NCBI GenBank assembly: GCA_014534415.1
Contig: JACVRM010000001.1
Coordinates: 1 to 35,174, forward strand
Direction: 5' to 3'
Length of the DNA: 35,174 nucleotides
Origin: Thermoleophilia bacterium
GTDB taxonomy: Bacteria > Actinomycetota > Thermoleophilia > Gaiellales > Gaiellaceae
This document shows, one piece after another, positions 21,087-35,174 of this stretch. The position numbers and the translations under genes are program-made. The notes below the pieces were generated by a model. It saw only the letters and a program-made list of their open reading frames with translations, ran no database searches and was not told the origin of the DNA. Position 1 is the stretch's first letter; each line of letters starts with the position of its first letter.

Positions 21087-21095
21087 TCCAGCAGG

Positions 21096-21119
21096 AATCT
21101 ACCCGACCCGGCCTAGGAT
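21096..21119. promoter_or_regulatory. Back-to-back -10-like boxes in a 39-bp divergent gap: TAGATT (minus, 21101-21096) and TAGGAT (plus, 21114-21119)
   Basis: TAGGAT is followed by 6 nt and then ATG 21126, the geometry of a leaderless mRNA. TAGATT is followed by 9 nt and then the E1-alpha ATG (21086), giving a leader of about 2-3 nt. There is no room for Shine-Dalgarno leaders. Confidence 0.35.
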
Positions 21120-21125
21120 CCCCGC

Positions 21126-21683
21126 ATGCACGACACGCTCGAGCGCCCGCTTGCGCTGGGCGGTCTGGGCTTTGCAGTCGCCCTCGCACTCTTTGCGGTG
21201 CTCGAAGACGCACGCGCCGACGCATACCTGCTCGGCCTCGCCGCCTTCTTCCTGGTCGCCTTTCTCGGTGCGCTGCGGGCCAGCCTGCGCGCCGTGGAAG
21301 GCGAGACGGCGCCGCTCTCGGCGACGGCGGTGATCGGCGGCTCCGTCGCCGCTGCCGGCTACGCCTTCCTCGCCGCGGCCTACGCCTCCGTCGCGCGTGA
21401 CGAGCTTCGCGAGCCGAACGTCGAGATCGCCGAGTTCGCGTTCTTCGTCTCGTTCCCGCAGGCGGCGGTGCTCGCGGCGGCGGCCACCGCCATGGCGCGA
21501 ACAGGAGTAGTGGCTCGTCCGCTCGGCCTCGCTGGCCAAGCGTTCGTGCCGCTTCAGCTGGGCGCGCCGCTCGTCCTGCTTTCTCCCGGTTCGGACGACT
21601 TCGCGATCGGGCTTGCGCTCGTGCCGTTCTGCGCCTGGGTCGCGGCGACGAGCATTCTGCTCGTGAGACGCCCTCGCGCCTGA
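21126..21683 (+). CDS. Hypothetical polytopic membrane protein (185 aa)
   Basis: ATG start and about 5-6 hydrophobic helices (LGGLGFAVALALFAVL, YLLGLAAFFLVAFLGAL, ...). This is the only coherent frame in the interval. No family recognised. Confidence 0.6.
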   Translation: MHDTLERPLALGGLGFAVALALFAVLEDARADAYLLGLAAFFLVAFLGALRASLRAVEGETAPLSATAVIGGSVAAAGYAFLAAAYASVARDELREPNVEIAEFAFFVSFPQAAVLAAAATAMARTGVVARPLGLAGQAFVPLQLGAPLVLLSPGSDDFAIGLALVPFCAWVAATSILLVRRPRA

Positions 21684-21740
21684 CGGGCCACGCGAACGCG
21701 CCGCGATCTCCGACCGTCCGCCTGCGAGGCGGGACGTCTG

Positions 21741-22643
21741 CTACGCGAGTACCGCCACCGCGTCTCGCTCGGCCTCGAAGACCGCGTGCTCGACGTCGCC
21801 GAGGTCCTCGCCGTCCGCCTGGAGCGGCAGCGGCCGCCCGCTCCGCAGCTCGATCCGGTCGAGGTCGTGGCCGTAGAGGACGTCGGCCGCGCTCGCCTGA
21901 CCTCGCCCACGCAGCGCGTACGCGAGCAGGCGCGGCAGCACGCGGGGCGAAACGGCGCGCGGCGCTACGAGGTCGAGACCGAGCTCGAACCGCGCCCGCG
22001 GCGCCGCGTGGACCGCCAGCGGACCGGCGAAGGTGTACGGGTCGGCGTTGGCGACGAGCGCGAACGCGGCGCGACCGTGCCCGACGATCTCGAGCTCCGG
22101 CTCGAAGCGGCCGCGCCGCTCCCAGAGCAGGCGCGCGACCGTCCAGACGACGTAGGCGTCGCCCGGGCGCCGCCCGTCGCTTCGCCGGCCGCGGCGGTCG
22201 ACGCGCCGGATGAGCTCGGCGTCGAGCCCGATCCCGGCGGAGAACGTGAACCGCCGGCCGTTGACGCGCCCCAGCGAGATGCGGCGGACCGTCCCGCCGT
22301 CGAGCGCCCGGGCGACGGCTCGCGCGGCGTCCACCGGGTCGCGCGGCACGCCCAGCGCGCGCGGTAGCACGTTCGTGCCCCCGCCCGGCACGAACCCGAC
22401 CGGCACGGGGTCTCGCAGTCCGTTCAGCACCTCGTTGAAGCCGCCGTCGCCCGAGAAGACCACCACCGCGTCGAGGTCCCCCCGCAGCACAGCGGCGAGC
22501 TCGGTCGCGTGACCCGGCCGCTCGGTACGCAGCGTCGTCACGTCCGCGACCCGGCGGAGCGCGCGCTCGACGGCCGCCATGGAGTGCTCGGTGACGCGGC
22601 TCGCGAACGGATTCACGATCAAGGCCACGCGCCGCCTCGTCAC
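21741..22643 (-). CDS. Diacylglycerol kinase-family lipid kinase (YegS/DagK-like)
   Basis: RRVALIVNPFAS...., the nucleotide-binding SGDGGFNEVLNGL, and PVGFVPGGGTNVLPRALG are the DAGK_cat signature. 300 aa. Confidence 0.88.
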   Translation of the reverse strand: MTRRRVALIVNPFASRVTEHSMAAVERALRRVADVTTLRTERPGHATELAAVLRGDLDAVVVFSGDGGFNEVLNGLRDPVPVGFVPGGGTNVLPRALGVPRDPVDAARAVARALDGGTVRRISLGRVNGRRFTFSAGIGLDAELIRRVDRRGRRSDGRRPGDAYVVWTVARLLWERRGRFEPELEIVGHGRAAFALVANADPYTFAGPLAVHAAPRARFELGLDLVAPRAVSPRVLPRLLAYALRGRGQASAADVLYGHDLDRIELRSGRPLPLQADGEDLGDVEHAVFEAERDAVAVLA

Positions 22644-22684
22644 GCGCCCAGCGTACTCGCATCGCTGGACCGGGCGGAAAGACA

Positions 22685-22707
22685 GAAGGCCGGCGATGCC
22701 GGCCTTC
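22685..22707 (-). terminator. Intrinsic terminator of the M6 protease gene
   Basis: On the minus strand: GAAGGCCGGC-AUC-GCCGGCCUUC followed by UGUCUUUCC. A second hairpin precedes it (CUCCUC..ACGCGC..GCGCGU..GAGGAG, 22708-22749). Confidence 0.7.
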
Positions 22708-22752
22708 CATCTACCTCCTCACGCGCAAGCGCGCGTGTTGGACGAGGAGTCT

Positions 22753-25700
22753 CTAGCGGGCGTAGAGCCCGATGTTGTCGAACGTGACCGTCCCGGCGGT
22801 TGCGAAGTCGGTCGGCGCGAAGCCGGTCAGCACGATCCGGATCTCCGCGACGCCGATCGGGATCGCCACCGCCTTTTCGAGGTCGGCGAAGCCGTTCGTC
22901 GCCAGGGGTGCGGTGAGCAGCTTGACCGTGTCGAGCACCTGCCCGGTTGCACTCAGGTAGGCGAGGCTGACGGCCGGGGCCGACGAGGCGCCGATCGCGT
23001 TCACCGAAGCGGTTACGTCGTAGGTCGCGCCGCCGGTGACCGCGATGGGAGCGCTCGTCCAGCTCGGCGAGCCGTGCACGGCCGCGTTCCCGCCCGAACC
23101 CTGCATCTGAGCGCCATGAGAACCGTCCGAGCCGCCGCTCGAGGTGTAGGACGTGGTGCCGGCGCCGGTGCTCTGACTCGACCAGCTCTCCGGAGCGGTG
23201 CCGGCCGCGTTCTGCGTCTCGAAGTCGCCGTTCTCGACCTTGTTCCCCTTGACCTCGACCGTGCGGGTCGCCGAGTTGTTGTTCTCGTTCTCCTCGGCGA
23301 CGAGACCGGTCTTGTCGGCCGTGGCCTTGATCTCATGCTGACCCTTCACGTTGCGGGTGTCCCAGACGATCGCCACCTCGGTCGACGCACCCTTCGCCAG
23401 CGCAGCGGTGTTCGCGAGCCCGAGCACGTTCGTGCCGTCGAGCAGGAACTCGGTTTTCGACGCGGGTGCGATTCCCGGGCCGGCATTCTGGATCGTCGCG
23501 GTGACCTTGACCTTCTCGCCCTCGCGGCCCTTCTGCTGGGCGACGACGAGGTTCGTCACCTGGAGGTCGGGGCCGAGCACCGTCACGGTCACGGTGGCGG
23601 TTCCCGTGAGCCCCTGGGCGTCGGTCACGGTCAGCGTCGCCGTGTAGCTACCCCTCGCGGCGTACGCGCGCGTGACGCTTTGCCCCGTCGCCGTCGGCGA
23701 GCCGTCGCCGAAATTCCACCGGTAGACCAGCTGATCGGCGGGCGTGCTGTCGTCGAAGGAGCCGGCAGCGTCGAACGTGACGGGCTCCCCGGTCCCGGCC
23801 GTCTTCGGCGTGGCGCTGGCGACCGCCGTGGGCGCAGCGTTGACGACGCCGGTGGAGTACTTGAACACCGCACAGCCGGCACCGGCCGTGATCCTCGCGT
23901 TCGCGGTCAGGTCGGAGGGCAGCGCCTCGCTGTTGGCCGTGTGGCCTGCCATCCCGAGCACGTCCAGCGTCAGGCAGCCGTAGTCGAAGTGCCAGAGGCC
24001 GTCGGGCGACGAGTCGTCGTTGAAGTTGTCCACCCAGCCGACGTCACGGAAGCGGCTGTCGCCCGTCGCGGTCGTGAAAGCGGCGTCGCGACACCGGAAC
24101 GGCGTCAGCACACCGGGCTCGGGGTGCGTCTCCTCGATGTTGTTTCCGCAGTCGTACCTCGGCTGCGGCCTCGAGTCGATGTAGTGCTGCCGCGGCGGCT
24201 GCGGCCCGCCGTTGTTGCCGTAGCCGCGCACTTCGTCGGTGTACTCGACGAGCACCCCCGGGTCCCAGCCGATCGCGCCGCGGTCTGACTGGCCGCGCCC
24301 GTTGAAGTCGAAGCCGGAGCGGTCACGCAGCTCCAGGTAGTAGGCGTGGTCGAGCGCGGACGGCTCGTCGGCCTTGATGCGGCTCCAGCCGTCCGTGCAC
24401 TTGGCGGCCACCTTCATGCCCTCGTTGCAGCCGCCCGGGAAGAGGCGCAGCTCGTCCTCCTCCGAGAAGTCGCTCGAGTAGATGACCTGGTTGCCGGCCT
24501 TGATCTCCAGGTCGTCGATGAACCAGCCCGGCCGATCCAAACCAGGGTCGGTGAAGTAGGAGAAGCGCAGCACCACCCCGCGCTTGCCCGCGTACGAGGA
24601 CAGGTCGTACTGGTCCGCGATGAACGGCGAGCCGCTGTCATAGCTGTCCTCGCCGCGGTCGACCGCGACTCGCGCCGGGCCGCCGGCGGCCGCGCCGCTC
24701 GTGCCGGTCAGGCCGTTGTCGAAGTTGTTCAAGCACGCGGAGTTGTGCGGGTTGACGGCCTTGGAGGTCGTGTAGCCCCGCTGCGAGGCGAGCGACGAGT
24801 AACTCGTCCCGTCGGTGCTCGCCAGCACGAACCCGTAGTCGAAGTCCCACTCGATGTCCCAGCTGGACTTGAAGCTGACCGTGATCGGCGTGCCCTCGGG
24901 CACGAATTCCAGCTCGGGCAGGTTCACGTCGAGGTTGTGGCCGGCCTTGGGGGCGCAGCCGAAGTCGTTGCCACGGCCTGACCACCACACGTAGGGCGCC
25001 GAGGCCTGCGTGCGCACCTTCTCGGGATCGATGATCAGACGCGGAGGCAGCTTGAGCGCGTACGCCTCGGAGTTGTGGATGTTCTGGTCGCCGTTCGCCG
25101 CCGAGAGCGTGTAGGCCTGCCCGCTCGGCGTCTGCCACTCGATCTTGCCCGTGTCGTTCTTGATCTCCTCCCAGTCGGACACGTTGCGCGTCTCGCCCGG
25201 CTGGAGGAACTTGGGGACGACCCAGCCGAGCTCTTGCTTCGAGAAGATCGTCATGTGCTGCGAGTAGTCCGCAGCCATCAGGTTCCAGTCGTTGTACGCC
25301 GAGTAGCCCGCGTAGTAGTCCGGCAGTCCGAGGTGATGGCCGTACTCGTGCGCGATCACGCTCGCGTGGTCCATCGCGTCCTCGGGGTTGATGTTGTACG
25401 GACCGACCCGTACGTGCACCGGCAGGCTGTCGCGACCGGTGCCACCGTTCGCCCGACAGTCGGCGAACTCGGCGTAGCTCTCGTTCTCCCAGCACTGCGG
25501 GACGCCCTCCAGGTCCGTCAGCTGGTCGTCCGAGACGTAACCCGCCAGGCCGGTGACCGGATCCTGGTACGAGTTCTCGAGCGACGAGGAGTGCGGCCAC
25601 GGGTTGTCGTAGGGCACGCCGTCCTCGCAGAAGATCGTCCCGAGCTGCGAGCTTCCGTTGCCGCCGCAGCCGGCGAACACGACCATCGTGAAGTCGACGA

Positions 25701-27516
25701 GGCCGTCCTTGTCTGAGTCGAACTGGTTGTAGTCGATCTCCGGGTCGGCGATCTGAACCGCGTCGTAGATCATCTTGCTCGTGTCGCCGCAGGCCTCGTC
25801 GATGGCGATCGTCGTCGCGGTGAACACCGGGAAGTCGCCGCCGTAGTACTCGGTGTCGCCCGGCAGCTGGTACCAGCCGTCGCGGATGCGGTCGGGATAG
25901 ACCGGCGTCCCGTAGAGCTCCTTGGTGTTACCCAGCGTGGCGCCGCGGCACGTCGGCTTCTTGACGTCGCGCTCGGTGAAGCGGAAGCCCGGCTCGTATT
26001 CGAAGTTCGCCGCCGCGATGTCGGCCGACGGAACGGTGCCGTCCGGGAAGAGCTGCCCGAAGGACATCTCCTGGTAGAGGTTGAACGTCGAGCCGGCGAA
26101 GTCGGGCGAGTTGACGACCGTCTCCAGGCGCTGGCCGCTGTGGCGCGACTTGTGCTTACGATCGCGGAAGTCGACCGGGATCATCGGGAACGGCTTGTCG
26201 CCGTATCGCGCCGTCTCGAACCCGCCGGTGGGGGGGATGACCTTCGGGCCGTGGCTGTCGGAGCGCAGCGCACCCGCGAGGCCGTCGTACGTCATCGAAG
26301 CGGTCGACGACAGGTCCTTCCACACGATGCGCGCGTCCTCGGTCGTGGTCAGCGCTCGGCCCTCGGCGACGAGGGTCGCCGTCTCGCCGGCCGCGACCGT
26401 GGGGATGTCCCAGCGGATTGTCCCGCTCGTGACCGTGGCCGAGCCAGAGGCGGCGAGTGGCTTCGCGCTGAGGAACCTGGCGCCGGGCGGCTGCGGTATC
26501 GAGACGGCCACGTTGTTCTTCGCCGCGTCTGAGAAGTTCTTGACGAAGACACGGAACGGGTACTTCTCGCCGGGCTTGACCCACCCGGTCGAGGAGACGA
26601 ACTTGTTCTCGAGCAGCAGCGTCGGGGCCGCGGCGGCGAGCACGACCGGGCCGGCGCCCTGACCGCTCCACTCGCCGGACGTCTGCTGGCTTCCACCGTT
26701 GCCGACGAACGGCGTCGCATCGGTGTAGGTCGCGGTCGCGCGGACGCCGAGCGTCAGCCTGTAGTTCGTGCCCGCACCCGGGTCGAGATTCGCCGTCGCC
26801 GAGCCCGGGAAGCTCGCCGCGAACGCGCCGGTCTCATCTGCCTGGACGCTCACGGGGCCGGCGAGCTGCGTCCCGTCGGGTGCGTGAAGCGTCAGCTCGA
26901 GCGATGCCGGCACCGGCGTGCGCTGGTCGGCACCGCAACCCACGCAGGCAAGGCTGTCGTACTCGACGACCGTTCCGGTCACGTCGACCGACTCACCCGG
27001 CGCGAACGACTCCTCGGTCGCCTTGAGGTCGATCTCGAGCGGGTTCAGCACGAACGTCGCCTGACCGCTTCCCTCGTCGGGAGCGGCCACCGAGGCGCGA
27101 ACCGTGATCGTCCCCGGATCCCAGTGCTGTTTCGGGACGATCAGGAAGGCGACGCGGCCGGCCGAGCTCGCCGTCACGTTCTGTGTGTCGACGACGGTGC
27201 CGTCGCTGTCGATGAACTCGACCTTGACGGGCTTGGCCTGCGCGGGAACGATCGAGACTCGCCCCCAGCCGCAGTCCTGCCGCCGCAGCGTGCTCTTTGC
27301 ATAGCCGACGTTGTTCGTGCAGATCGGCTGCGGCTGGATGTCCTCGCGGATGTCCCAGGACGCGAACGTGAACGTCGCGCCGTCGGGTGCTGCTGCACCG
27401 GCGCCCACGAGACAGAGCGGGACAGCGGCAGTGAGAGCAGCCAGCACGGCGACGAGCGTCGCCCGCGACGGGCACCAGCCTCGGCGTACGAAAGAGTTGC
27501 GACCGACTCGCGACAT
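22753..27516 (-). CDS. Secreted multidomain M6 (immune inhibitor A / InhA-like) zinc metalloprotease, 1587 aa, with PKD, CARDB-like and CBM-like C-terminal modules
   Basis: ATG 27516 is preceded by GAGGAGG with a 9-nt spacer. Signal peptide ...ATLVAVLAALTAAVPLCLVGAGAAAP. The zinc motif HEYGHHLGLPDYY (HEYGH at 25336-25350) is diagnostic of family M6. PKD repeat (VYRWNFGDGS...YTATLTVTD, ~23.6-23.85 kb). CARDB-like module (DLQVTNL...ENNENNNSATRTV). The terminal jelly-roll ends TFDNIGLYAR. The track start (27630) adds an implausible leader spanning the promoter. Confidence 0.9.
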   Translation of the reverse strand: MSRVGRNSFVRRGWCPSRATLVAVLAALTAAVPLCLVGAGAAAPDGATFTFASWDIREDIQPQPICTNNVGYAKSTLRRQDCGWGRVSIVPAQAKPVKVEFIDSDGTVVDTQNVTASSAGRVAFLIVPKQHWDPGTITVRASVAAPDEGSGQATFVLNPLEIDLKATEESFAPGESVDVTGTVVEYDSLACVGCGADQRTPVPASLELTLHAPDGTQLAGPVSVQADETGAFAASFPGSATANLDPGAGTNYRLTLGVRATATYTDATPFVGNGGSQQTSGEWSGQGAGPVVLAAAAPTLLLENKFVSSTGWVKPGEKYPFRVFVKNFSDAAKNNVAVSIPQPPGARFLSAKPLAASGSATVTSGTIRWDIPTVAAGETATLVAEGRALTTTEDARIVWKDLSSTASMTYDGLAGALRSDSHGPKVIPPTGGFETARYGDKPFPMIPVDFRDRKHKSRHSGQRLETVVNSPDFAGSTFNLYQEMSFGQLFPDGTVPSADIAAANFEYEPGFRFTERDVKKPTCRGATLGNTKELYGTPVYPDRIRDGWYQLPGDTEYYGGDFPVFTATTIAIDEACGDTSKMIYDAVQIADPEIDYNQFDSDKDGLVDFTMVVFAGCGGNGSSQLGTIFCEDGVPYDNPWPHSSSLENSYQDPVTGLAGYVSDDQLTDLEGVPQCWENESYAEFADCRANGGTGRDSLPVHVRVGPYNINPEDAMDHASVIAHEYGHHLGLPDYYAGYSAYNDWNLMAADYSQHMTIFSKQELGWVVPKFLQPGETRNVSDWEEIKNDTGKIEWQTPSGQAYTLSAANGDQNIHNSEAYALKLPPRLIIDPEKVRTQASAPYVWWSGRGNDFGCAPKAGHNLDVNLPELEFVPEGTPITVSFKSSWDIEWDFDYGFVLASTDGTSYSSLASQRGYTTSKAVNPHNSACLNNFDNGLTGTSGAAAGGPARVAVDRGEDSYDSGSPFIADQYDLSSYAGKRGVVLRFSYFTDPGLDRPGWFIDDLEIKAGNQVIYSSDFSEEDELRLFPGGCNEGMKVAAKCTDGWSRIKADEPSALDHAYYLELRDRSGFDFNGRGQSDRGAIGWDPGVLVEYTDEVRGYGNNGGPQPPRQHYIDSRPQPRYDCGNNIEETHPEPGVLTPFRCRDAAFTTATGDSRFRDVGWVDNFNDDSSPDGLWHFDYGCLTLDVLGMAGHTANSEALPSDLTANARITAGAGCAVFKYSTGVVNAAPTAVASATPKTAGTGEPVTFDAAGSFDDSTPADQLVYRWNFGDGSPTATGQSVTRAYAARGSYTATLTVTDAQGLTGTATVTVTVLGPDLQVTNLVVAQQKGREGEKVKVTATIQNAGPGIAPASKTEFLLDGTNVLGLANTAALAKGASTEVAIVWDTRNVKGQHEIKATADKTGLVAEENENNNSATRTVEVKGNKVENGDFETQNAAGTAPESWSSQSTGAGTTSYTSSGGSDGSHGAQMQGSGGNAAVHGSPSWTSAPIAVTGGATYDVTASVNAIGASSAPAVSLAYLSATGQVLDTVKLLTAPLATNGFADLEKAVAIPIGVAEIRIVLTGFAPTDFATAGTVTFDNIGLYAR

Positions 27517-27568
27517 TCGAGTTGACCTCCTCGTCCAATGACACCACTTTACGTGGAGTCTACGGATG

Positions 27569-27596
27569 ACTATAGCACCACCGGGTAGGGTGTCAA
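27569..27596 (-). promoter_or_regulatory. Promoter of the M6 protease gene with inverted repeat in the spacer
   Basis: Minus strand: TTGACA-CCCTACCCGGTGGTGC-TATAGT (16-nt spacer). The repeat ACACC-N9-GGTGC spans the -35 edge to the -10 edge. It has the same layout as the promoters at 29195-29223 and 34935-34963. Confidence 0.6.
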
Positions 27597-27634
27597 GAAG
27601 CGCCCACGCGAGGAACCCGCCTGCTGGCACAACG

Positions 27635-27663
27635 CAGCAGGCCCGCCGTGGGCGGGCCTGCTG
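27635..27663 (-). terminator. Hairpin terminator downstream of the 479-aa S8 protease gene
   Basis: Minus strand: CAGCAGGCCCGCC-CAC-GGCGGGCCUGCUG, a 13-bp perfect stem, followed by CGUUGUGCC (weak U tract). Confidence 0.55.
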
Positions 27664-27702
27664 TCGGACGAGGAAGTGTCCGGGAGAAGCTGGTTTTCCC
27701 GG

Positions 27703-29142
27703 CTAGCCGCCGATCGCGCGCAGCGCGTCCACGCGGCCGTAGCCGTAGAAGCTGTCGTAGCCGGCGGCGCCGATGTCGACGGAGGTCTCCTTGAGCTTCG
27801 CCTCCACCTGGTCAGGCTTCATCACGACGTCGCCGTCGGGAGCGACCTTGCCGTACCTGCTCACGATCAGCGCCGCCACGCCGGCCGCGTGCGGAGACGC
27901 CATCGACGTACCGTTCGCCGTCAGGTACTGGCTGCCCGGGAACGTCGAATACACCGCCGCCCTGCCGTCGCTCGCGTCGGCATCGCCGCCGGTCGACCCG
28001 TTGCCGCCCGGCGCCGTCACGTCGACCGCGCCGAAGCCGTAGTTCGAGTAGCTCGCCTTCACGCCGTCCGCGCCGATCGACGAGACGCCGATCACGCCGG
28101 GCGTCTGACCCGGGACGACCCTGCAGTCCGCGTACTGCGGGCTGCCGAGATCGAGCCTCGAGTTTCCGAGCGCGGCGACGGGGACGACGCCGCGGCTGCG
28201 CGCGTACGCGATGGCGCGCTCGATGGCCGTGACGGTCGCGCTGTCCTGCGGGTTGCACTCGATGAGCTGCTCGTCGTCGGCGTAGAAGCTCATATTCACG
28301 ACGTCGAGCTTGATGTCGCCCGCGTAGGTGATCCCGTCGACGACGGCGCTCCACCAGCACGCGTACGCCTGGCAGACGGTGACGGGCACGAGCGTGACGT
28401 CCGGAGCGACGCCCACGATGCCGACCCCGTTCGACTGGGCCGCGATGCTGCCGGCCACGTGCGTTCCGTGGAAGCTCGTGTCCGTGCAAGGCAACGGAGC
28501 ACCGACGCCGGGCGTCACCGAGACGCGTGCGCGTGAGCAGTCGACGTTCGACGACCCGCCGAGCACGCCCATGTCGGTGAAGTCCACGTGCGTGCTGTCG
28601 ACACCCGTGTCGAGCACGCCCACGTCGACCGTCCGCGAGCCCGCGTGCCGGGCGTGCGCCTGGTTGGTCCGGATCATCTTCATGTCCCACTGCAGATTCT
28701 CGGCCGGATCGTCGTGCAGGTCGGGATTACTCCGGCGGTTGTCCGACTTCGGCTGGGCGTCGGCGCCCTTCGGCGTGACGGAGCGGTCCTCGCTGACCGA
28801 ATCGATCACGGCGTAGCCGCCCGTCACCGCGTACTCCTGCACGAGCTGCGCGAAGTTTCCGTTCGCCGACTCGGCCACGATCACGCCGATTTGCTTGCTC
28901 AGGTCGTTCGTGATCGTGCCGCCGGCGGCCTGGACCGCGTAGACGGCGTACTGATGCGTGACGGCGTAGACGGCGTAGTCCGAGCCGACGGCGTACCCAT
29001 CGGTCACCGCGTAGTCGCCGTCCAGCGTGATGATGTAGCGCTTCGTATCGACCGCGTAGCCGCTCGCGGAGCTCAGCGTGAGACCACCGAGCGCCACCGC
29101 AGCCACGAGAACGGCCAAAAGAAGGCGGTGTAGGCGTAGCAT
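27703..29142 (-). CDS. Secreted S8 (subtilisin-like) serine protease, 479 aa, with YAV-repeat-containing propeptide
   Basis: ATG 29142 is preceded by GGACGAGGAGG. Signal peptide MLRLHRLLLAVLVAAVALGGLTLSSASG. Catalytic triad contexts VGVLDTGVD, HGTHVAGSIA and GTSMASPHAAG. Confidence 0.9.
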   Translation of the reverse strand: MLRLHRLLLAVLVAAVALGGLTLSSASGYAVDTKRYIITLDGDYAVTDGYAVGSDYAVYAVTHQYAVYAVQAAGGTITNDLSKQIGVIVAESANGNFAQLVQEYAVTGGYAVIDSVSEDRSVTPKGADAQPKSDNRRSNPDLHDDPAENLQWDMKMIRTNQAHARHAGSRTVDVGVLDTGVDSTHVDFTDMGVLGGSSNVDCSRARVSVTPGVGAPLPCTDTSFHGTHVAGSIAAQSNGVGIVGVAPDVTLVPVTVCQAYACWWSAVVDGITYAGDIKLDVVNMSFYADDEQLIECNPQDSATVTAIERAIAYARSRGVVPVAALGNSRLDLGSPQYADCRVVPGQTPGVIGVSSIGADGVKASYSNYGFGAVDVTAPGGNGSTGGDADASDGRAAVYSTFPGSQYLTANGTSMASPHAAGVAALIVSRYGKVAPDGDVVMKPDQVEAKLKETSVDIGAAGYDSFYGYGRVDALRAIGG

Positions 29143-29194
29143 TCTCTTCCTCCTCGTCCGTGGTGTTGCGGCGGCGCTTAAACCGCCACGCCGC

Positions 29195-29223
29195 ATTTAA
29201 CACACCACTGGAGAGGGTGGCAA
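29195..29223 (-). promoter_or_regulatory. Promoter of the 479-aa S8 protease gene with inverted repeat in the spacer
   Basis: Minus strand: TTGCCA-CCCTCTCCAGTGGTGTG-TTAAAT (17-nt spacer). About 40 nt around it match the LVIVD-gene promoter (TCTCATCTTGmCACCCT.....AGTGGTGTGTT). Confidence 0.6.
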
Positions 29224-29279
29224 GATGAGATTTCAGGTCAATCTGATGGAGGTTTGAGCAGCTTTGGCCCGGAAAATCT

Positions 29280-31898
29280 CTACCCGCGTTCGTCGAGCCG
29301 AAGCAAGAACGAGCCGAATGAGCCCGCGCCGCCGCCACCGAGCTTCGCTCGGCTGACGGCGACGTAGTAGCGGCCAGGCGCCGGCGACGGGAGGGTCAGG
29401 ATCTGCGGCGCTCCGCTCGGAGTCGACCCCCGCTCCGCGTTCGCGGACAGATCGGTGACTCCCGGCTGGCTGAACGGATGCGTCGTCGCATCGAGATCGA
29501 GGTCGGCGTCGTAGATGTACAGGTCATAGGTTTCGTCGGACGGGCTGACCGCGTGCACCGAGAAGCGGGCCGCGCTCAAGCCGGCCGCGAGCTCGACCGG
29601 GTAGACGAGCCAGTCGGCGGACGAACCGGTGCCGGCGCTGCCTGCGGCCGACGGCCAGACCGTGTCGCCCTTGGCGAAGACGTCGAGCGCGGAAGCGACC
29701 GACGACTGCGCGCCTGACGAGACTCCGGCGACGCGGTTCGCGTCGTGGAGCGGCACCGACGCGAAGACGGGGATCTCGAGCACCTGCCCGTTCGACACCG
29801 TCGCGACGACGGTGCCGCTGTACGAGCCTGGTACCGCGCCGGCAGGCGCGGTGGCGGTGAACGTGACGAGCGCGTCACCCCCCTTCGGGACGCTGGCCCG
29901 AGCAGGCAGTCGGATCGTCCAGCCGCCCTTCCCGGTCGTGATCGGCCGGCTCGTATCCGAGGGCCGGCCGGACTGGAAGGCGAAGCGCACGGTGTGCGGG
30001 CCCTGGCCGGGAGCCGCGTGGAGGACGAACCTCTGGCTCAGCGACGAGCCGGCCGGCAAGACACCCAGCTGCCAGCTGCCCTGGAGGTCTCGCGGACCCG
30101 TGCCGGCTGCATCCCCGCTGCCCGAGGCCGCGCTGTACGCGACGATGCCGCTGCGTAGCGCCTGGATCGCCCGCGTCACGTGCACCTTGCCGGCGCCCTG
30201 CGCGAGCGGCCCGACGAACGGATCGGCGCCGCGGTTGCGCGCCTCGTACAGGGTCAGCGTGCCGAGGAAGAGGTCGATGATCTGCACGCCGAGGCTGCAG
30301 AAACCGAAGAGCAGAACGTCGAGCTCGGGTGCCGGGCAGCTCGTAGACGTAGAGCCGTCGACCGTCAGCATCCACCGCGACTCGTAGAGGCCTGTTTCGG
30401 CCGTGTTCATCAGCGCCGCGCGAACGAGCGCGTGGCTTCGCGCCGGCAGGCCCGTCACTCCCGAGGAGCCCACCGGGCTGGCGCCGTGCTGGGTGCGGTA
30501 GGCCTGAAGCATCAGCGCGGCGACGCCTGCGGTGGCCGGGCTGGCCATCGACGTACCGGTTGCGGTCGCGTAGAGCGGATCGGCGCGCGTCCCCCTGTTC
30601 AGGTCGTTCTGCGTGATCGCAACGCCCTCGACCGCCTGCGGCGCGACGATGTTGTAGCCGGGCGCCGCCAGATCCGGCTTGAGCCACAGATCGCCGGTCG
30701 GGCCGCGCGACGAGAAGGACGAGATCGACGGCGGCTGCGCCCCGCTGCCGGACGCGCACTCCGCGCGGGTCGGCAGCCAGCCGGCGCAGATGTCGCCGGA
30801 CAGCGTGTCGTCGTGGTTGACGTCGTAGTCCTTCGCCGCCGCGGCGACCGACAGGACCTGCGCGGCGGAGCCGGGCGATTCGAGCGCGCTGCCGACGTAC
30901 GGCCCGCTGTTGCCGACAGCCGCCACGATCGTCGTACCGAAGCGCACTGCGAGCCGGTTGGCGACGTAGCTGACGAAGTCCACGTCGCTCCCCGAGTTCA
31001 GCCGGGTCGGACGAGACTCGGAGCCGAGGCTCAGGTTGACCACATCGGCGCCGACCGACTCGCAGCCGAGCGGGCCCGTACCCGCCGGTAGGGCAGCCCA
31101 CTCGAGCGCTGCGACGAGGTCGCTGTTGATACCTGCACCCGCGTCCGTGAGCACCTTGGCGACGGCGAGTTCTGCGTCGGGCGCGACCCCTGCGTAGCGC
31201 CCGTCGTCCGCGGACTCGACCGGCACCCCCTCGCCGGTGCCCGTCGCGATGCCGGCGACGTGCGTCCCGTGTCCGTGGCCGTCCTGCGTCCCGAGCGCAC
31301 ACGTCCCCGCGAGGAAATTGCGGCTGCCGACGACCTTGCCCGGGTTCGGCAGGAGACTCGACCAGTGGCGGAAGTCGAGGTCGTCGAAGTCGGCGTGCAG
31401 GGGATCCAGGCCCGTGTCCAGGACGGCCACGCGCACTCGTGCGCCGGTAATCCCCGCGCTCCACCACGGCTGGGCGCCGACGTCGCCCGTCGTGGCGCGA
31501 GACTGGTCGCCAGGAGGTTCGTGTCCGAGCACCGTGACCGCCTCGACCGGCGTCAGCCACCGGACCCACGGGAGCGCCGCGACGTCGAGGACCGACGCCG
31601 GGGTCGACGCGAGCGCGAACGCGTTCACGGAGCGGTACGCCCGCAAGATGCGCGCTCCGCGCAGCGCGAGCGCAGCCGCGTGGAGCGAGTCGTTCGGCTC
31701 CGAGAGCACTACGAAGTACGCCAGCTCGCCCGGCTGCAGGCCGGCCAGCGTGGCGACCCGGGGATCGGTCGGGGCCGCCCCTGCGACGAGCGCGTCGAGG
31801 CCGCCGCGCAGCTTGCCGGCGTCTGCCGCGCCCGCCGGCGCCAGGCAGAGCGCGGCGACGAGCGTCGCCAGCCCAGCGATGCCGCTGCGTGTCCGCAT
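29280..31898 (-). CDS. Secreted S8 serine protease, 872 aa, with C-terminal pre-peptidase (PPC)-like domain
   Basis: Signal peptide MRTRSGIAGLATLVAALCLAPAGAADA. Triad contexts VAVLDTGLD, HGHGTHVAGIA and GTSMASPATAG. The C-terminus ...DLYIYDADLDLDA...GRYYVAVSRAK...SFLLRL is PPC-like. The RBS is GGACGAAGGAAG. I see no promoter in the 69-nt gap after trmB, so it is probably co-transcribed with trmB. Confidence 0.9.
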   Translation of the reverse strand: MRTRSGIAGLATLVAALCLAPAGAADAGKLRGGLDALVAGAAPTDPRVATLAGLQPGELAYFVVLSEPNDSLHAAALALRGARILRAYRSVNAFALASTPASVLDVAALPWVRWLTPVEAVTVLGHEPPGDQSRATTGDVGAQPWWSAGITGARVRVAVLDTGLDPLHADFDDLDFRHWSSLLPNPGKVVGSRNFLAGTCALGTQDGHGHGTHVAGIATGTGEGVPVESADDGRYAGVAPDAELAVAKVLTDAGAGINSDLVAALEWAALPAGTGPLGCESVGADVVNLSLGSESRPTRLNSGSDVDFVSYVANRLAVRFGTTIVAAVGNSGPYVGSALESPGSAAQVLSVAAAAKDYDVNHDDTLSGDICAGWLPTRAECASGSGAQPPSISSFSSRGPTGDLWLKPDLAAPGYNIVAPQAVEGVAITQNDLNRGTRADPLYATATGTSMASPATAGVAALMLQAYRTQHGASPVGSSGVTGLPARSHALVRAALMNTAETGLYESRWMLTVDGSTSTSCPAPELDVLLFGFCSLGVQIIDLFLGTLTLYEARNRGADPFVGPLAQGAGKVHVTRAIQALRSGIVAYSAASGSGDAAGTGPRDLQGSWQLGVLPAGSSLSQRFVLHAAPGQGPHTVRFAFQSGRPSDTSRPITTGKGGWTIRLPARASVPKGGDALVTFTATAPAGAVPGSYSGTVVATVSNGQVLEIPVFASVPLHDANRVAGVSSGAQSSVASALDVFAKGDTVWPSAAGSAGTGSSADWLVYPVELAAGLSAARFSVHAVSPSDETYDLYIYDADLDLDATTHPFSQPGVTDLSANAERGSTPSGAPQILTLPSPAPGRYYVAVSRAKLGGGGAGSFGSFLLRLDERG

Positions 31899-31967
31899 CT
31901 CGCTTCCTTCGTCCGAGCCGGCGCACGGCCGGTGTGCTCTGAGCCTACTGCGGTTCGGCGCTTTCGC

Positions 31968-32801
31968 CTAGGCCGTCTTGGCGACCGGGACGAGGCGGTC
32001 GTACGCCGCGTCGAAGTCGAGGCCCTGCGCCCAGACGGCGTCGAAGGCGATCGTCAGCGTCTCGGCGAGCGAGCGATGCTCGACGACGACCATGGTCAGG
32101 TCCGAGCCGCCCTCGACCGGGTCTTCCATCCCGAACATCACGTACCGCCTGTCGATGATGACGAGCTTGAGCGGCAGCTCCTCGACGAAGCGGGCCTCCT
32201 CGCCGGCCTGGATGAAGCCGCGGACTCCTTCGATCGTCTCCGGATCGTCGAAGATCGAGAACTCGTAGACGCTCTTGGCGGTGTGCGTGCGTGCGACCTC
32301 GACGCCCTTCTCCTCCTCCTGGGGCGGGGTCGCGTACGGCGGCTTCGTGAAGACCAGAATCTCGTCCTTGATCTCCTCCTGGAGCTCGCTGAACCGCTCG
32401 TTGATCGCGCGGCGGTCGCGCAGTACCTCGATGTAGTCGAGCGGGTCGGTGACCTCCTGGCCCGCGCTGAAGGCCGGCGAGAGCTCTCCGATCATCTCGT
32501 CGGCGGCGCGCTCCAGCTCTTCGACGGCCTGACGGCGGTCCTCCACGAGGCGCTCGATGGCCGTTTCCGGAGCCGAGCCGACGTACTTGACCACGCGTCC
32601 CGGCCGGGTCGAGGCGAGTCCGCGCTCCACGAGGCTCGCGAGCACGTCGTAGATGCGCTGCCGCGGCACGCCGGCGATGCGCGCCACCTCGGCGGCCGTC
32701 GAGGATCCGCGCCGGATGAGCGCGAGGTACGCCTTGGCTTCGTACATCGTGAGCCCGAGGCGAGTCAGCTGATCGACGTAACGCTGCTCGTTCACCGACA
32801 C
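31968..32801 (-). CDS. TrmB-family transcriptional regulator
   Basis: The N-terminal wHTH LTRLGLTMYEAKAYLALIRRGSSTAAEVARIAGVPRQRIYDVLASLVERGL is the TrmB (PF01978) signature. 277 aa with a C-terminal sensor-like domain. The -10 box ends 2 nt before GTG 32801, so the true (leaderless) start may be GTG 32795. Confidence 0.9.
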   Translation of the reverse strand: MSVNEQRYVDQLTRLGLTMYEAKAYLALIRRGSSTAAEVARIAGVPRQRIYDVLASLVERGLASTRPGRVVKYVGSAPETAIERLVEDRRQAVEELERAADEMIGELSPAFSAGQEVTDPLDYIEVLRDRRAINERFSELQEEIKDEILVFTKPPYATPPQEEEKGVEVARTHTAKSVYEFSIFDDPETIEGVRGFIQAGEEARFVEELPLKLVIIDRRYVMFGMEDPVEGGSDLTMVVVEHRSLAETLTIAFDAVWAQGLDFDAAYDRLVPVAKTA

Positions 32802-32803
32802 CC

Positions 32804-32833
32804 ATCGTAGGGTGCCACCCGGACGAGTGTCAA
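32804..32833 (-). promoter_or_regulatory. trmB promoter, probably leaderless, with palindrome GGGTG-G-CACCC in the spacer
   Basis: Minus strand: TTGACA-CTCGTCCGGGTGGCACCC-TACGAT-gg-GTG. The palindrome (32810-32820) uses the same CACCC/GGTG half-sites as the three island promoters, but in everted order. Confidence 0.55.
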
Positions 32834-32891
32834 AGGCGCGTCCTCTGTTAAGGGCGCGGATTCGACCGGGCTCAGTAACTCCGTTACGGAC

Positions 32892-32917
32892 GAGCGGCCG
32901 CCTCCCGGCGGCCGCTC
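32892..32917 (-). terminator. Hairpin downstream of the LVIVD-repeat gene (terminator-like)
   Basis: GAGCGGCCGCC-(4 nt)-GGCGGCCGCTC, a perfect 11-bp stem 25 nt after the stop. There is no clear U tract on the minus strand. A small second hairpin follows (GTAAC-GGA-GTTAC). Confidence 0.5.
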
Positions 32918-32941
32918 GAGCAACTTCTGTGTTAGCGGCGG

Positions 32942-34894
32942 TTAGCCGGCGCCGACCTGGATGTTGCCCTTCAGCAGGACGCCGCCGGCGCCGTAGCCGT
33001 TGCCCAGCACCATCCGGAAGGTGTCCACGCTGCCGGGCTCGCCGAAGTCCTCCACCTCGACGAAGAGACTGACGCCGGGCACACCGTTCACGGTCGCCGT
33101 TCCGGTGAACGTCGCCTTGTTCCCGGTGCGGACGAACGAGTCGATCGAGGTCGACTTCACCTGCATCTTCGTCCCGTGGTCGACGTAGGTCAGCTGGCCG
33201 GTCGGGGCGCCAACCGCGAACGCTGCGTTGAAGCCGAAGTTCGCACGGCCGCCGGCGGCCGTGCCACGCAGGATCGACAGCTCGGCCAGCTCACCCGAGA
33301 CCTGGCCGCCGCCCGTCGCCTTGCCCGGAGTGTTGATGGGAGGCAGGGAGATGCAGTTCGCGCCGTCGCACGTCTTGAAGCGGTACACGTCGAAGCCGCG
33401 CGCCATGTCGCCGGCGTAGACGTAGCCCTTGTACTCCTTCGCCGACCAGGTGTCGGCGCCCGGCATGACGTTCCAGCCCAGCGTGTTCCCCCAGTCCGTG
33501 AACTGGTCTTCGGCGATGCCGTCGGTGGAGCTCGGCGCCCCCGAGAAATCGAGCCGCCAAACGCCCGCGCCGTAGTGAGCGCTGACGAGCTCGCGTGCCC
33601 GGAGGCTCGACACACCGTCGAAGCCGCCTTGGATCGGCCCCGGCCCGGCGGTGCCGTTGCCGCCGTTGCGGAACACGTGGATCGTGCAGGCGCGCTCGGT
33701 GCGACCGAGACCCGCGAGTACAGGCTCGAGGGCGTCGGCCGCAAGCAGCGGGTTCGGGTAGAACCACGTGCCCAGCCGCACCGGGTTCGACGGCGCCGCC
33801 GTAGCCGTCTCGGGCTTGCCGTCGATGGGTTCGAGAGTGTAGAAGTGCGCGCCGCCGATGATCCCGTCGGGCCCGGTGTTGCACTGTGTCTGGCTGAGGC
33901 CGCCGCCGCGCTCGTCGGTGAAGACGACGATCCTGCCGTCGGAGCTGACGTCCGCCTGGTGGTCGGTCGTGAGGTTGTAGCGGTTGTTCGCTCCGCCGGG
34001 CAGCGCATTCTCGGAGATCCACGCGATACGCAGCGGCTGCTGACCCTGTTCCAGTTGCGCGAGCACGTTCGAGACGTCGACGATGAACGTCCCGCCGACG
34101 CCGCCGGGGCCCGAGGGGCTGGCGAGGTACATGGTGTTTCCGTCGCGCGAGAACGACGAATCGTGCGCCGTACCGCCGGTGTCCGTCAGGATCTTCCCCC
34201 TGAAGACCGGGGTCGCACCACGGAGGTCGACCACCTCGACCCCGCTCGCGGACGTGTTCACGGCGAGCCAGGTGCCGCTGGGATGCAGCGTGATCGTGTG
34301 GGCTCCGCCGGAGACCGCGTTGAGGTAGCAGTCGACGAGCGACGTCGTGAACTTCGCGGTCTGCGGGTCGAACGTGAGCTTGACGACGTCGACGCCGCCG
34401 CGAGTGCTCGTCGGATTCTTCTCCTTGAGGCACGCCGAGGCGTGGACGGGGATGTTCACCGGGTCGAACGCGATCACGGCGGTGTCGCCGCGCACCGAGA
34501 CGTCGTTCTGCCAGCCCGGATCGACGTAGCCTCCGGCGATCGTCGGATGCGCCGGGTCGGTGATGTCGAAGATCCGCATCCCGGCGCCCATCGTCCCGAG
34601 GAACGCGTAGTCGCGGACCTTGCCGCTCGCATCAGTGCGCGATTGAAACTCCACGTCGGTTCCGACGAAGCCGCAGACGTTGGCGAGGTGCGCGATGTTC
34701 TTCGCCGAGCGCGGGGGCTGACCGGGCGTCGCGAGCGCCTCGCACGGCAACGCCACGTTGTGTGCGGGATCGAGCGGATCGCCGGCGAGCGCCTGCGCAC
34801 CCGCGACGGCCAGCGTCGCGGCCACGACCGCGATCGCGGCACCGGGGAAAACCTGCAAGAGACGGCGGCGCAGCGGTGTGCTCTCGGTGCTCAC
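32942..34894 (-). CDS. Secreted LVIVD-repeat-type beta-propeller protein with distinct ~120-aa C-terminal beta domain
   Basis: GTG 34894 is preceded by GGACGAGGAGG with a 5-nt spacer. Signal peptide ...RRRLLQVFPGAAIAVVAATLAVAGAQALAG. Repeated motifs of the GMRIFDITDPAHPTIAGGY / GVEVVDLRGATP / GTFIVDVSNV type are characteristic of LVIVD propellers. The C-terminal module ends ...FVEVEDFGEPGSVDTFRMVL..GY..GG.LLKGNIQV. Confidence 0.8.
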   Translation of the reverse strand: MSTESTPLRRRLLQVFPGAAIAVVAATLAVAGAQALAGDPLDPAHNVALPCEALATPGQPPRSAKNIAHLANVCGFVGTDVEFQSRTDASGKVRDYAFLGTMGAGMRIFDITDPAHPTIAGGYVDPGWQNDVSVRGDTAVIAFDPVNIPVHASACLKEKNPTSTRGGVDVVKLTFDPQTAKFTTSLVDCYLNAVSGGAHTITLHPSGTWLAVNTSASGVEVVDLRGATPVFRGKILTDTGGTAHDSSFSRDGNTMYLASPSGPGGVGGTFIVDVSNVLAQLEQGQQPLRIAWISENALPGGANNRYNLTTDHQADVSSDGRIVVFTDERGGGLSQTQCNTGPDGIIGGAHFYTLEPIDGKPETATAAPSNPVRLGTWFYPNPLLAADALEPVLAGLGRTERACTIHVFRNGGNGTAGPGPIQGGFDGVSSLRARELVSAHYGAGVWRLDFSGAPSSTDGIAEDQFTDWGNTLGWNVMPGADTWSAKEYKGYVYAGDMARGFDVYRFKTCDGANCISLPPINTPGKATGGGQVSGELAELSILRGTAAGGRANFGFNAAFAVGAPTGQLTYVDHGTKMQVKSTSIDSFVRTGNKATFTGTATVNGVPGVSLFVEVEDFGEPGSVDTFRMVLGNGYGAGGVLLKGNIQVGAG

Positions 34895-34934
34895 GGAAAC
34901 CTCCTCGTCCACGGGGCGGTGCTCTGACGCCGGC

Positions 34935-34963
34935 AGTAAACACACCACTCTTAAGGGTGTCAA
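34935..34963 (-). promoter_or_regulatory. Promoter of the LVIVD-repeat gene with inverted repeat in the spacer
   Basis: Minus strand: TTGACA-CCCTTAAGAGTGGTGTG-TTTACT (17-nt spacer), with the repeat ACACC-N9-GGTGT at 34942-34960. The track ORF start (TTG 34963) is in fact the -35 box. Confidence 0.6.
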
Positions 34964-34996: not shown

Positions 34997-35174
34997 CTAT
35001 CTCGGTGTCGCGTACCCGCGCATGCCGTCGAGCAGCAACGCGTAGAAGCGGTCGGCCAGCTCGTCGGTGTCGCGACCGGGCTCGAGCCAGGTGTACGCCC
35101 AGTTGGCGGCCGACAGCACGAGCAGCGCGGCCGTCGCGTCGTCCAGATCGGTGCGGAAGTCGCCTCCCTCGCGC
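34997..35174 (-). CDS. C-terminal fragment of a probable TetR/AcrR-family regulator (N-terminus beyond the window end)
   Basis: The reverse strand reads ...LLVLSAANWAYTWLEPGRDTDELADRFYALLLDGMRGYATPR* (TAG at 34997-34999). This resembles the last helices of TetR_C domains. No HTH is visible, so the family call is tentative. Confidence 0.5.
   Translation of the reverse strand, partial: REGGDFRTDLDDATAALLVLSAANWAYTWLEPGRDTDELADRFYALLLDGMRGYATPR

Follow-up and report, generated by a model that had tools for sequence, protein, structure and literature searches.

We analysed a stretch of 35,174 nucleotides from a Thermoleophilia bacterium (assembly GCA_014534415.1, contig JACVRM010000001.1, positions 1 to 35,174), called the window throughout the paper. 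It carries a 17-bp inverted repeat in the promoters of an M6 peptidase gene, a small S8 subtilase gene and an LVIVD beta-propeller gene, together with trmB, the gene of a TrmB-like protein. Judged from sequence comparison, it is likely that this TrmB(L2)-like protein binds the 17-mer, blocks RNA polymerase and in this way represses its own gene and genes for secreted proteases and surface proteins, with two operators, termed O1 and O2, acting together at promoters that have both. The predicted targets in the window are the M6 peptidase gene (O1 and O2), the small S8 gene (O1) and the LVIVD propeller gene (O1). The trmB gene, and probably the large S8 subtilase gene, would be controlled through a degraded copy of the site.

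A 17-bp inverted repeat in the promoters of protease genes

The initial annotation of this DNA had quoted four minus-strand promoter sequences, for the M6 gene (27596 to 27569), the small S8 gene (29223 to 29195), the LVIVD gene (34963 to 34935) and trmB (32833 to 32804), and all four were found at these coordinates. The pattern drawn from the first three, with a gap of N5 before (A/G)GTGGTG, was wrong by one base. The true gap measures 4 nt, and the N5 pattern matches no site at all. Using the corrected pattern CACCCTNNNNRGTGGTG (CACCCT-N4-R-GTGGTG, 17 bp), exactly three matches with 13 specified bases each were obtained in the 35-kb window, all on the minus strand (27592-27576, 29219-29203 and 34959-34943), and shuffled sequences gave none. 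Allowing up to 2 mismatches, 5 matches were counted in the window versus a shuffle mean of 0.88, with 0 of 100 shuffles reaching 5. The repeated inverted repeat is real and above chance. A looser 17-mer scan of the window added nothing apart from a second site in the M6 leader, and the other 27 kb were motif-free. The earlier statement that no other intergenic region of the window carries the motif thus held elsewhere in the window and missed only this second M6 site. The repeat had also been described as ACACC-N9-GGTGT. Its CACC-N9-GGTG core was correct, the outer A...T pair occurs at the LVIVD site only, and a 6-N5-6 layout with the half-sites CACCAC and GTGGTG describes the element better. 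The variant pattern CACC-N7-GGTG had zero matches in the window.

The putative O1 operator of the M6 peptidase promoter (27576..27592, minus strand; CACCCTACCCGGTGGTG) lies between the -35 box TTGACA (27596-27591) and the -10 box TATAGT (27574-27569) and has an orthologous counterpart in the related loci L001, L028 and L106. The second putative operator, O2, is found in the M6 leader (27542..27558, minus strand; CTCCACGTAAAGTGGTG) and begins 34 bp downstream of O1. In the small S8 subtilase promoter the putative O1 (29203..29219, minus strand; CACCCTCTCCAGTGGTG) overlaps the end of the -35 box TTGCCA (29223-29218), and TGTTAAAT after it is probably an extended -10 box. The putative O1 of the LVIVD/post-COAP-1 promoter (34943..34959, minus strand; CACCCTTAAGAGTGGTG) is placed correspondingly at the -35 box TTGACA (34963-34958). 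At the small S8 and LVIVD promoters, O1 is not accompanied by an O2. Finally, the trmB promoter contains a putative degraded operator in the same register as the other sites (32813..32829, minus strand; CACTCGTCCGGGTGGCA), flanked by the -35 box TTGACA (32833-32828) and the -10 box TACGAT (32809-32804) on the same strand.

A consensus promoter scan confirmed the boxes of the M6 promoter (TTGACA-16-TATAGT, 11/12 positions) and of the trmB promoter (TTGACA-18-TACGAT, 10/12) as they had been assigned in the initial annotation. The -10 boxes that it had given for the small S8 and LVIVD promoters failed the scan. Both promoters possess good -35 boxes, and their -10 regions fit the extended form TGnTAnnn better than the hexamers proposed. 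The site begins on the final two bases of the -35 box TTGACA and reaches up to the predicted -10 box. In the mechanism that we propose, RNA polymerase would therefore be denied access to the promoter once a protein is bound.

Conservation of the repeat in related genomes

For comparison, 80 metagenome loci were fetched and the loci L123, L125 and L126 were added. Three close orthologous loci (81-84% protein identity) retain the gene order TetR - trmB - proteases, with S8, M6 and M36 peptidase genes preceded by the motif. The footprint set with the motif before orthologous S8, M6 or M36 genes consisted of L001, L003, L014, L028, L106, L127, L129, L130, L132 and L134. Orthologous S8 and M6 genes of 10 or more related contigs are preceded by these sites, and the O1 of the small S8 gene is conserved before 11 or more S8 orthologues. 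The small-S8 orthologues, about a dozen in number, have invariant arms, CACCC(T/C) and GTGGTG, around freely varying central bases, with the centres CTCCA, GGAAA, CCCGA, TTGAA, TAGAA and TTGTA among those observed. Fixed arms around a free centre are the pattern expected of an inverted repeat that is contacted by a protein through its arms and not through its centre.

The promoters of trmB orthologues (64-82% protein identity) provided the clearest form of the site. The N5 palindrome CACCAC-N5-GTGG was present in 59 of 75 distinct trmB upstream regions that were long enough to be judged, and several further trmB promoters had the palindrome with N6 or N7 spacing. These promoters typically read TTGA-CACCAC-N5-GTGGT(t/a), followed by a TAnnnT box a few bases on. 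The bases directly before the site are T, G and A in 56, 55 and 50 of the 59 promoters, respectively, indicating that the site is locked onto the TTGA of the -35 box. The consensus CACCAC-N5-GTGGTG, a 17-bp palindrome, derives from these 59 trmB promoters and from 41 target promoters. Compared with it, the window motif is an imperfect version with CCT or CCC for CAC as the left inner triplet. The half-sites of this palindrome are 6 bp each, with their centres 11 bp apart. In 588 kb of trmB loci the loose 17-mer matched 253 times, versus 6.1 +/- 2.9 matches in Markov simulations (about 40-fold enrichment), and housekeeping promoters in the fetched loci lacked the motif. Judged by these comparisons, the motif behaves as a protein operator overlapping the predicted promoter, in agreement with what had been proposed.

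We also considered whether the likeness of the promoters results from copied promoter cassettes or a general promoter style and involves no specific binding site. The small S8 and LVIVD promoters indeed share extra flanking identity (TCTCATCTTG...GTGGTGTGTT), and LVIVD orthologues elsewhere have no such site, indicating that the LVIVD promoter was acquired. Between the same two promoters, however, identical arms enclose a centre of 5 nt that differs at 4 of its positions, which points to selection and not to recent copying. Moreover, orthologues with 65-85% protein identity show invariant arms, and other promoters, both of the window and of the loci, lack the motif. This makes copying a highly improbable account of a site that we regard as a probable operator. 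The LVIVD orthologues were tried as independent support for the third site of the window and rejected for this use because of the missing motif. The LVIVD gene was seemingly brought under control in this genome only, where it seems to have gained an S8-like promoter. LVIVD/post-COAP-1 orthologues of other metagenome-assembled genomes (MAGs) with 65% GC, at the loci L207 and L208, belong to extensive S8, M14 and M28 peptidase gene clusters, with neither the operator nor a nearby trmB.

A scan of a genome collection with CTTGMCACCCTNNNNRGTGGTG gave, among the matches listed, mostly chance matches in coding DNA of unrelated phyla. At least five of the matches listed were genuine loci (L008, L014, L028 and L106, with L046 as a probable case). 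L046 (517-600) belongs to a MAG labelled Candidatus Limnocylindria (Chloroflexota) and shows a clean O1 and O2 pair before a gene for a secreted protein. The labels Limnocylindria or Limnocylindrales are also attached to one TrmB homologue and to several LVIVD homologues. This indicates either an occurrence of the system across phyla or a misassignment of the bins.

Target promoters, the putative second operator and the predicted mode of action

Target promoters of the family carry TTGA-CACCC(C/T)-N5-GTGGTG in the spacer. Relative to the full palindrome, O1 of the targets is weakened in its left inner triplet (CACCCT or CACCCC), and many targets, including the M6 gene of the window, have O2 about 34 bp downstream in what is predicted to be the early transcribed region. 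An O2 of the form (g/t/a)ACCAC-N5-GTGGTG(tca) was found at 19 of 41 distinct O1 promoters, starting 33-37 bp and mostly 34-35 bp downstream of O1. The weakened O1 together with an O2 at about 34 bp suggests cooperative binding of two protein units. The genes behind O1 promoters code most commonly for S8 subtilases, further for M6 and M36 peptidases, DUF11/PKD proteins, sortilin/BNR-like and cadherin-like proteins, and the N-termini of nearly all target proteins are signal-peptide-like. In two loci a gene for an extracytoplasmic function (ECF) sigma factor is also found behind operators, in three copies each.

In these two loci of more distant relatives, L123 (13800-13880) and L125 (13870-13950), the ECF sigma factor gene lies near trmB, and the three operators fall into about 90 bp upstream of it, two of them in tandem TTGACA promoters. 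With three operators at the sigma factor gene, the regulator may control the sigma factor in the L123 and L125 genomes.

Binding of the TrmB-like protein might also activate transcription or have a dual role, either by a MerR-type remodelling of the spacer or by recruitment of the polymerase. Proteins of the TrmB family are known to activate or repress depending on the position of the site (PMC4158304), and the weak -10 boxes of the small S8 and LVIVD promoters might need help. Nevertheless, the spacers of 16-18 bp are already optimal, so a MerR-like realignment is not needed, the -35 boxes are near the consensus TTGACA, and repression typically goes with an extra site downstream of the start such as O2. 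Archaeal members of the family activate from sites upstream of the promoter and repress from sites at or after it (PMC4158304). We therefore consider activation very unlikely and repression the expected outcome of binding.

The promoter of trmB

The palindromes in trmB promoters suggest negative autoregulation, which had been proposed in the initial annotation. Family-wide, the 59 of 75 promoters speak for it, and in the window itself it is uncertain. Read in the same register, the trmB promoter of the window gives CACTCG-TCCGG-GTGGCA, which matches the consensus half-sites at 7 of 12 positions. The same promoter had been described as an everted, tight palindrome, GGGTG-G-CACCC. The 30-nt promoter sequence is identical in the window, L001 and L003, and trmB relatives of the same clade retain the core CACTC-N4-GGGTGGCA in register with the other sites. 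The everted palindrome is broken in L131, which carries GGTGGCAGG, and the trmB orthologues of all other clades have the ordinary palindrome at the corresponding promoter position. The everted arrangement is therefore not a conserved feature. The simplest reading of these sequences is a remodelled, weaker operator rather than a new everted site.

The trmB start codon is located 7-9 nt past the -10 box in the window (32793-32809, minus strand), in L001 (9989-10003) and in L003 (9989-10003). This constant short distance in three genomes fits a leaderless trmB mRNA and supports the assignment of the -10 box. In the window, translation probably starts at the GTG at 32795, 9 nt past the -10 box, and not at 32801.

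The TrmB-like protein as candidate binder

The trmB-like gene (31968..32801, minus strand) codes for a protein of 277 amino acids with the Pfam TrmB winged helix-turn-helix (wHTH) domain PF01978 at residues 12-74 (72.5 bits, cutoff 25.6). Its N-terminal region matches the NCBIfam models of TrmB, TrmBL1 and TrmBL2, and its match to the TrmB structure 3QPH is confined to residues 9-110. The best full-length match is TrmBL2 (TK0471/PF0496; structures 5BPD, 5BOX, 5BPI and 5BQT), an archaeal chromatin protein and global repressor of 264 amino acids. A profile of 13 orthologues aligned with the TrmBL2 structure 5BPD_A over query residues 4-258 and chain residues 3-260 (E 7.1e-21), and 5BOX was matched as well. 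Using the NCBIfam TrmBL2 equivalog model NF041141, 74.5 bits were obtained at a cutoff of 530, indicating a distant homologue of TrmBL2 and not an orthologue. TrmBL2 and the window protein have in common the wHTH domain, a long helix and a C-terminal domain without a sugar sensor. No sugar-binding effector domain of Pfam was found in the window protein, only a weak match to DUF7436 below the cutoff (25.4 versus 34.2 bits). An AlphaFold model shows a helix at residues 78-116 after the wHTH domain that aligns to the TrmBL2 helix, with a predicted local distance difference test score (pLDDT) of 72-84 to about residue 100 and of 61-46 beyond. In the TrmB family a long amphipathic helix behind the wHTH domain forms the dimer. 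With a mean pLDDT of 58, only the N-terminal half of the model is usable, and the C-terminal fold is too uncertain to confirm the TrmBL2 architecture by structure. A search for homologues at E<=1e-10 yielded 2062 proteins, mainly from soil metagenomes. The few named ones come from Gaiellaceae, Thermoleophilia and Limnocylindria/Limnocylindrales MAGs.

The linkage of the motif to trmB is exclusive: trmB is the only gene that is constant at motif-bearing loci, even where all other neighbours are different (L123, L125 and L126). In L002 the proteases are gone, and one O1 promoter persists right after trmB. In the orthologue alignment the recognition helix PRQRIYDVL is invariant, paralleling the invariant arms of the operator. 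Based on this constant linkage, the TrmB wHTH domain and a site geometry resembling the Thermococcales glycolytic motif (TGM), the binding motif of the archaeal TrmBL1, the adjacent TrmB-like protein, as first suggested, is by far the best candidate for the binder. A dimeric binder had been postulated along with it. This was an assumption, and TrmBL2, the closest solved homologue, is a tetramer.

The neighbouring TetR-like protein had been named as an alternative binder. Its gene at the window end (34998-35174) can be assigned to a phenylacetate regulator by the palindrome CGAACGATCGTTAG between paaA and tetR, and in L001-L003 tetR is divergent from paaABCD. The palindrome is conserved in L001 (9231-9272), L002 (9093-9133) and L003 (9334-9374), with no CACC motif there, and presumably fits the Thermus PaaR consensus CNAACGNNCGTTNG. 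No TetR gene was found within 10 kb of the motif in L123, L125 and L126. With a palindrome of its own, and with its gene absent from more distant trmB loci that still bear the motif, TetR is effectively excluded as the binder, and its sequence context fits a PaaR-type phenylacetate regulator that is not part of the protease system.

Alternatively, a regulator encoded elsewhere could bind the motif, and trmB would merely be a conserved member of the regulon that adjoins other members. The comparative data show co-occurrence only, a motif at trmB promoters is equally expected were trmB only a target, and the trmB site of the window is degenerate. However, no other regulator gene is constant near the motif, and the best palindromes occur precisely at the promoter of trmB itself, as is usual with autoregulation. 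In addition, a characterised motif of the TrmB family has the same geometry as the site, and the TetR neighbour has a different operator. We regard an unlinked regulator as unlikely and the TrmB-like protein as the probable binder.

Repression by the TrmB-like protein has to be weighed against several observations. An unlinked regulator that also controls trmB would yield an identical pattern of sites. The -10 boxes are weak by consensus at two of the three target promoters, and the LVIVD site, the weakest of the three, has no orthologous support. With only 7 of 12 half-site positions matched, autoregulation by trmB is uncertain for this very genome. The O1-O2 distances of 33-37 bp are not whole helical turns, so simple cooperativity on the same face of the helix is not obvious. 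Archaeal TrmBL2 is described as forming filaments and as covering DNA largely irrespective of sequence (PMC4877046), and homology to such a largely nonspecific chromatin protein does not predict specific binding. On the other hand, the window protein is linked to discrete, conserved operators, which argues for specific binding in its case. In the TrmBL2 tetramer, which was crystallised on the 19-bp TGM, two neighbouring major grooves receive two HTH domains each (PMC4877046). By analogy, a TrmBL2-like tetramer is a possible reason for the tandem CAC-CAC half-sites.

Complementary sequences in leaders and 3' untranslated regions

The leaders of the three target genes share an extended ribosome-binding 11-mer, GGACGAGGAGG, in exact copies on the minus strand (27526..27536 for M6, 29149-29159 for small S8 and 34900-34910 for LVIVD). 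With one mismatch allowed, 9 matches were counted in comparison to a shuffle mean of 2.2. Ribosome binding needs GGAGG only, and the 11-mer is longer than required. A related sequence, GGACGAAGGAAG, is present in the leader of the large S8 gene.

In the small S8 gene's 3' untranslated region (3'UTR) a 24-nt element (27666..27689, minus strand; CTTCTCCCGGACACTTCCTCGTCC) follows the stop codon. Its anti-leader sequence is placed in the loop of a small hairpin, and a strong terminator hairpin (27663-27635) comes next. The element is near-identical in five genomes, namely the window, L001 (12568-12640), L003 (15150-15210), L028 and L106, the last two with one additional C. The 3'UTR sequence CTTCCTCGTCC was considered as the partner of the leader sequence GGACGAGGAGG. 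The M6 gene has a 3'UTR hairpin (22715..22749, minus strand; CTCCTCGTCC...GAGGAG), and after it a strong terminator (22708-22684), with counterparts in L001 (17563-17640) and L106 (at about 4433). Between the 5' arm of this hairpin and the M6 leader there is complementarity over 12 nt. Perfect complements between a leader and its own 3'UTR measured 9-10 nt for small S8 (five genomes) and 12 nt for M6, that is, 9-12 nt across M6 in two genomes and small S8. In M6 a compensatory change was observed, TTGGAC/GTCCAA in the window versus GTGGAC/GTCCAC in L001. Two unrelated target genes showed perfect complements of 10 nt with different sequences. Among 90 non-regulon genes of the same loci, a rough control with many genes inside operons, the maximum was 9 nt and none reached 10. 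From these sequences, we predict that the 3'UTR elements may pair with their own ribosome-binding leaders.

Pairing between 5'UTR and 3'UTR has been described for icaR and hbs (PMC3868564, PMC5737220), and the icaR mRNA of Staphylococcus aureus contains a 3'UTR element complementary to its own Shine-Dalgarno region (PMC3868564). Compared to icaR, several genes of one regulon are concerned here, and the predicted anti-leader is part of, or adjoins, a small hairpin that directly precedes the terminator. In L003 (15244-15400) the M6 coding sequence is seemingly deleted. Its promoter with the operator is still there, separated by about 40 nt from the hairpin and terminator of the M6 3'UTR. This region was considered as a small-RNA gene and is better explained as an M6 promoter and 3'UTR remnant after deletion of the coding sequence. 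The remnant may give an anti-leader transcript of about 120 nt with small-RNA-like behaviour.

The repeat itself might also be an RNA hairpin that acts on stability or translation, and not a DNA site. The predicted 5'UTR includes O2, which forms a small CCAC/GUGG hairpin on folding, and these mRNAs carry other conserved features at the RNA level. Against this, O1 is upstream of the predicted start of transcription, and a stem of four bases with a loop of nine is weak. The arms are fixed and never co-vary; recognition by a protein gives such a fixed sequence, and an RNA helix does not need it. Furthermore, 50-56 of 59 trmB promoters have the site in a fixed position at the -35 box. An RNA hairpin is hardly conceivable as the function of the repeat, and we retain the DNA operator as the likely one. 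An Rfam scan of the whole window revealed no family at threshold, and neither the leaders nor the 3'UTR elements belong to a known RNA family.

Gene content of the window

The M6, small S8, large S8, trmB and LVIVD genes are all located on the minus strand, and their products were assigned with Pfam. The proposed targets are the M6 (InhA-like) peptidase gene (22753..27516), the small S8 subtilase gene (27703..29142) and, in this genome only, the LVIVD/PD40/post-COAP-1 beta-propeller gene (32942..34894). The large S8 subtilase gene (29280..31898) lies 69 nt downstream of trmB. With no operator of its own and this short gap, it is probably co-transcribed with trmB, and L003 shows the same arrangement of the two genes.

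Behind the M6 gene a YegS/DAGK-type lipid kinase gene (21741-22643, minus strand) was recognised by its family match as the real gene. An open reading frame of 714 amino acids (20566-22710, minus strand), which starts inside the M6 terminator, had no family match and is probably spurious. Similarly, the Shine-Dalgarno-like arm of the M6 3'UTR hairpin with the ATG at 22710 was rejected as a gene start, as this ATG is conserved neither in L001 nor in L003. In L002 the lipid kinase gene follows directly after trmB, indicating that the protease genes are an insertion between trmB and the kinase gene.

Relation to known systems and significance

With classical bacterial repressors, the palindromic operator overlaps the promoter hexamers or lies between them, another operator is present downstream, and the regulator gene is autoregulated. 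A repressor in the promoter spacer is an ordinary, textbook mechanism. The system predicted here differs from the classical spacer repressors by its protein family, the tandem CAC triplets and an O1-O2 spacing of about 34 bp that is not simply same-face. Within the TrmB family, TrmBL1 of Pyrococcus furiosus and Tgr of Thermococcus kodakarensis recognise TGM, TATCAC-N5-GTGATA, and repress when the site is at or after the core promoter (PMC4158304). Autoregulation has been reported within the family as well (PMC4158304). By comparison of the sequences, both systems have a TrmB-family wHTH protein and a 17-bp palindrome of the layout 6-N5-6 with an identical inner CAC-N5-GTG, whereas the outer triplets are CAC/GTG here and TAT/ATA in the TrmBL1/Tgr motif. 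The archaeal system further works with TBP/TFB, a sugar-binding C-terminal domain and genes of sugar metabolism, in contrast to the bacterial sigma-70-type promoters and secreted proteases found here. TrmBL2 has been reported to be conserved in some bacteria (PMC3031468). The mycobacterial MmtA1, a bacterial PF01978 regulator without a C-terminal domain, binds ACAATTGT. Our literature search found no described CACCAC-N5-GTGGTG operator and no bacterial TrmB(L2)-like protease regulator. The regulator-operator pair, the TrmBL2-like nature of a bacterial regulator and the protease regulon appear undescribed in the literature searched.

The regulator-operator pair is testable and covers a large uncharacterised bacterial branch of TrmB proteins, and for any genome of the clade the regulon can be predicted with the 17-mer. 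The apparent regulon of secreted S8, M6 and M36 peptidases and large surface proteins is new for the TrmB family, whose characterised archaeal members control sugar metabolism. A TrmBL2-like protein that appears tied to discrete operators of TGM geometry links chromatin-type and site-specific regulators in one family. Secreted peptidases are the enzymes that release nitrogen from soil protein. As a tentative and rather doubtful extension of these findings, a relative of TrmBL2 may have become a sequence-specific master switch of extracellular proteolysis in abundant, uncultured soil Thermoleophilia. Its paired HTH domains would read the tandem CAC triplets and bridge two operators about 34 bp apart across the promoter, and pairing of 3'UTRs with leaders, both of their own and, via GGACGAGGAGG, of sister mRNAs, would form a second layer of control.

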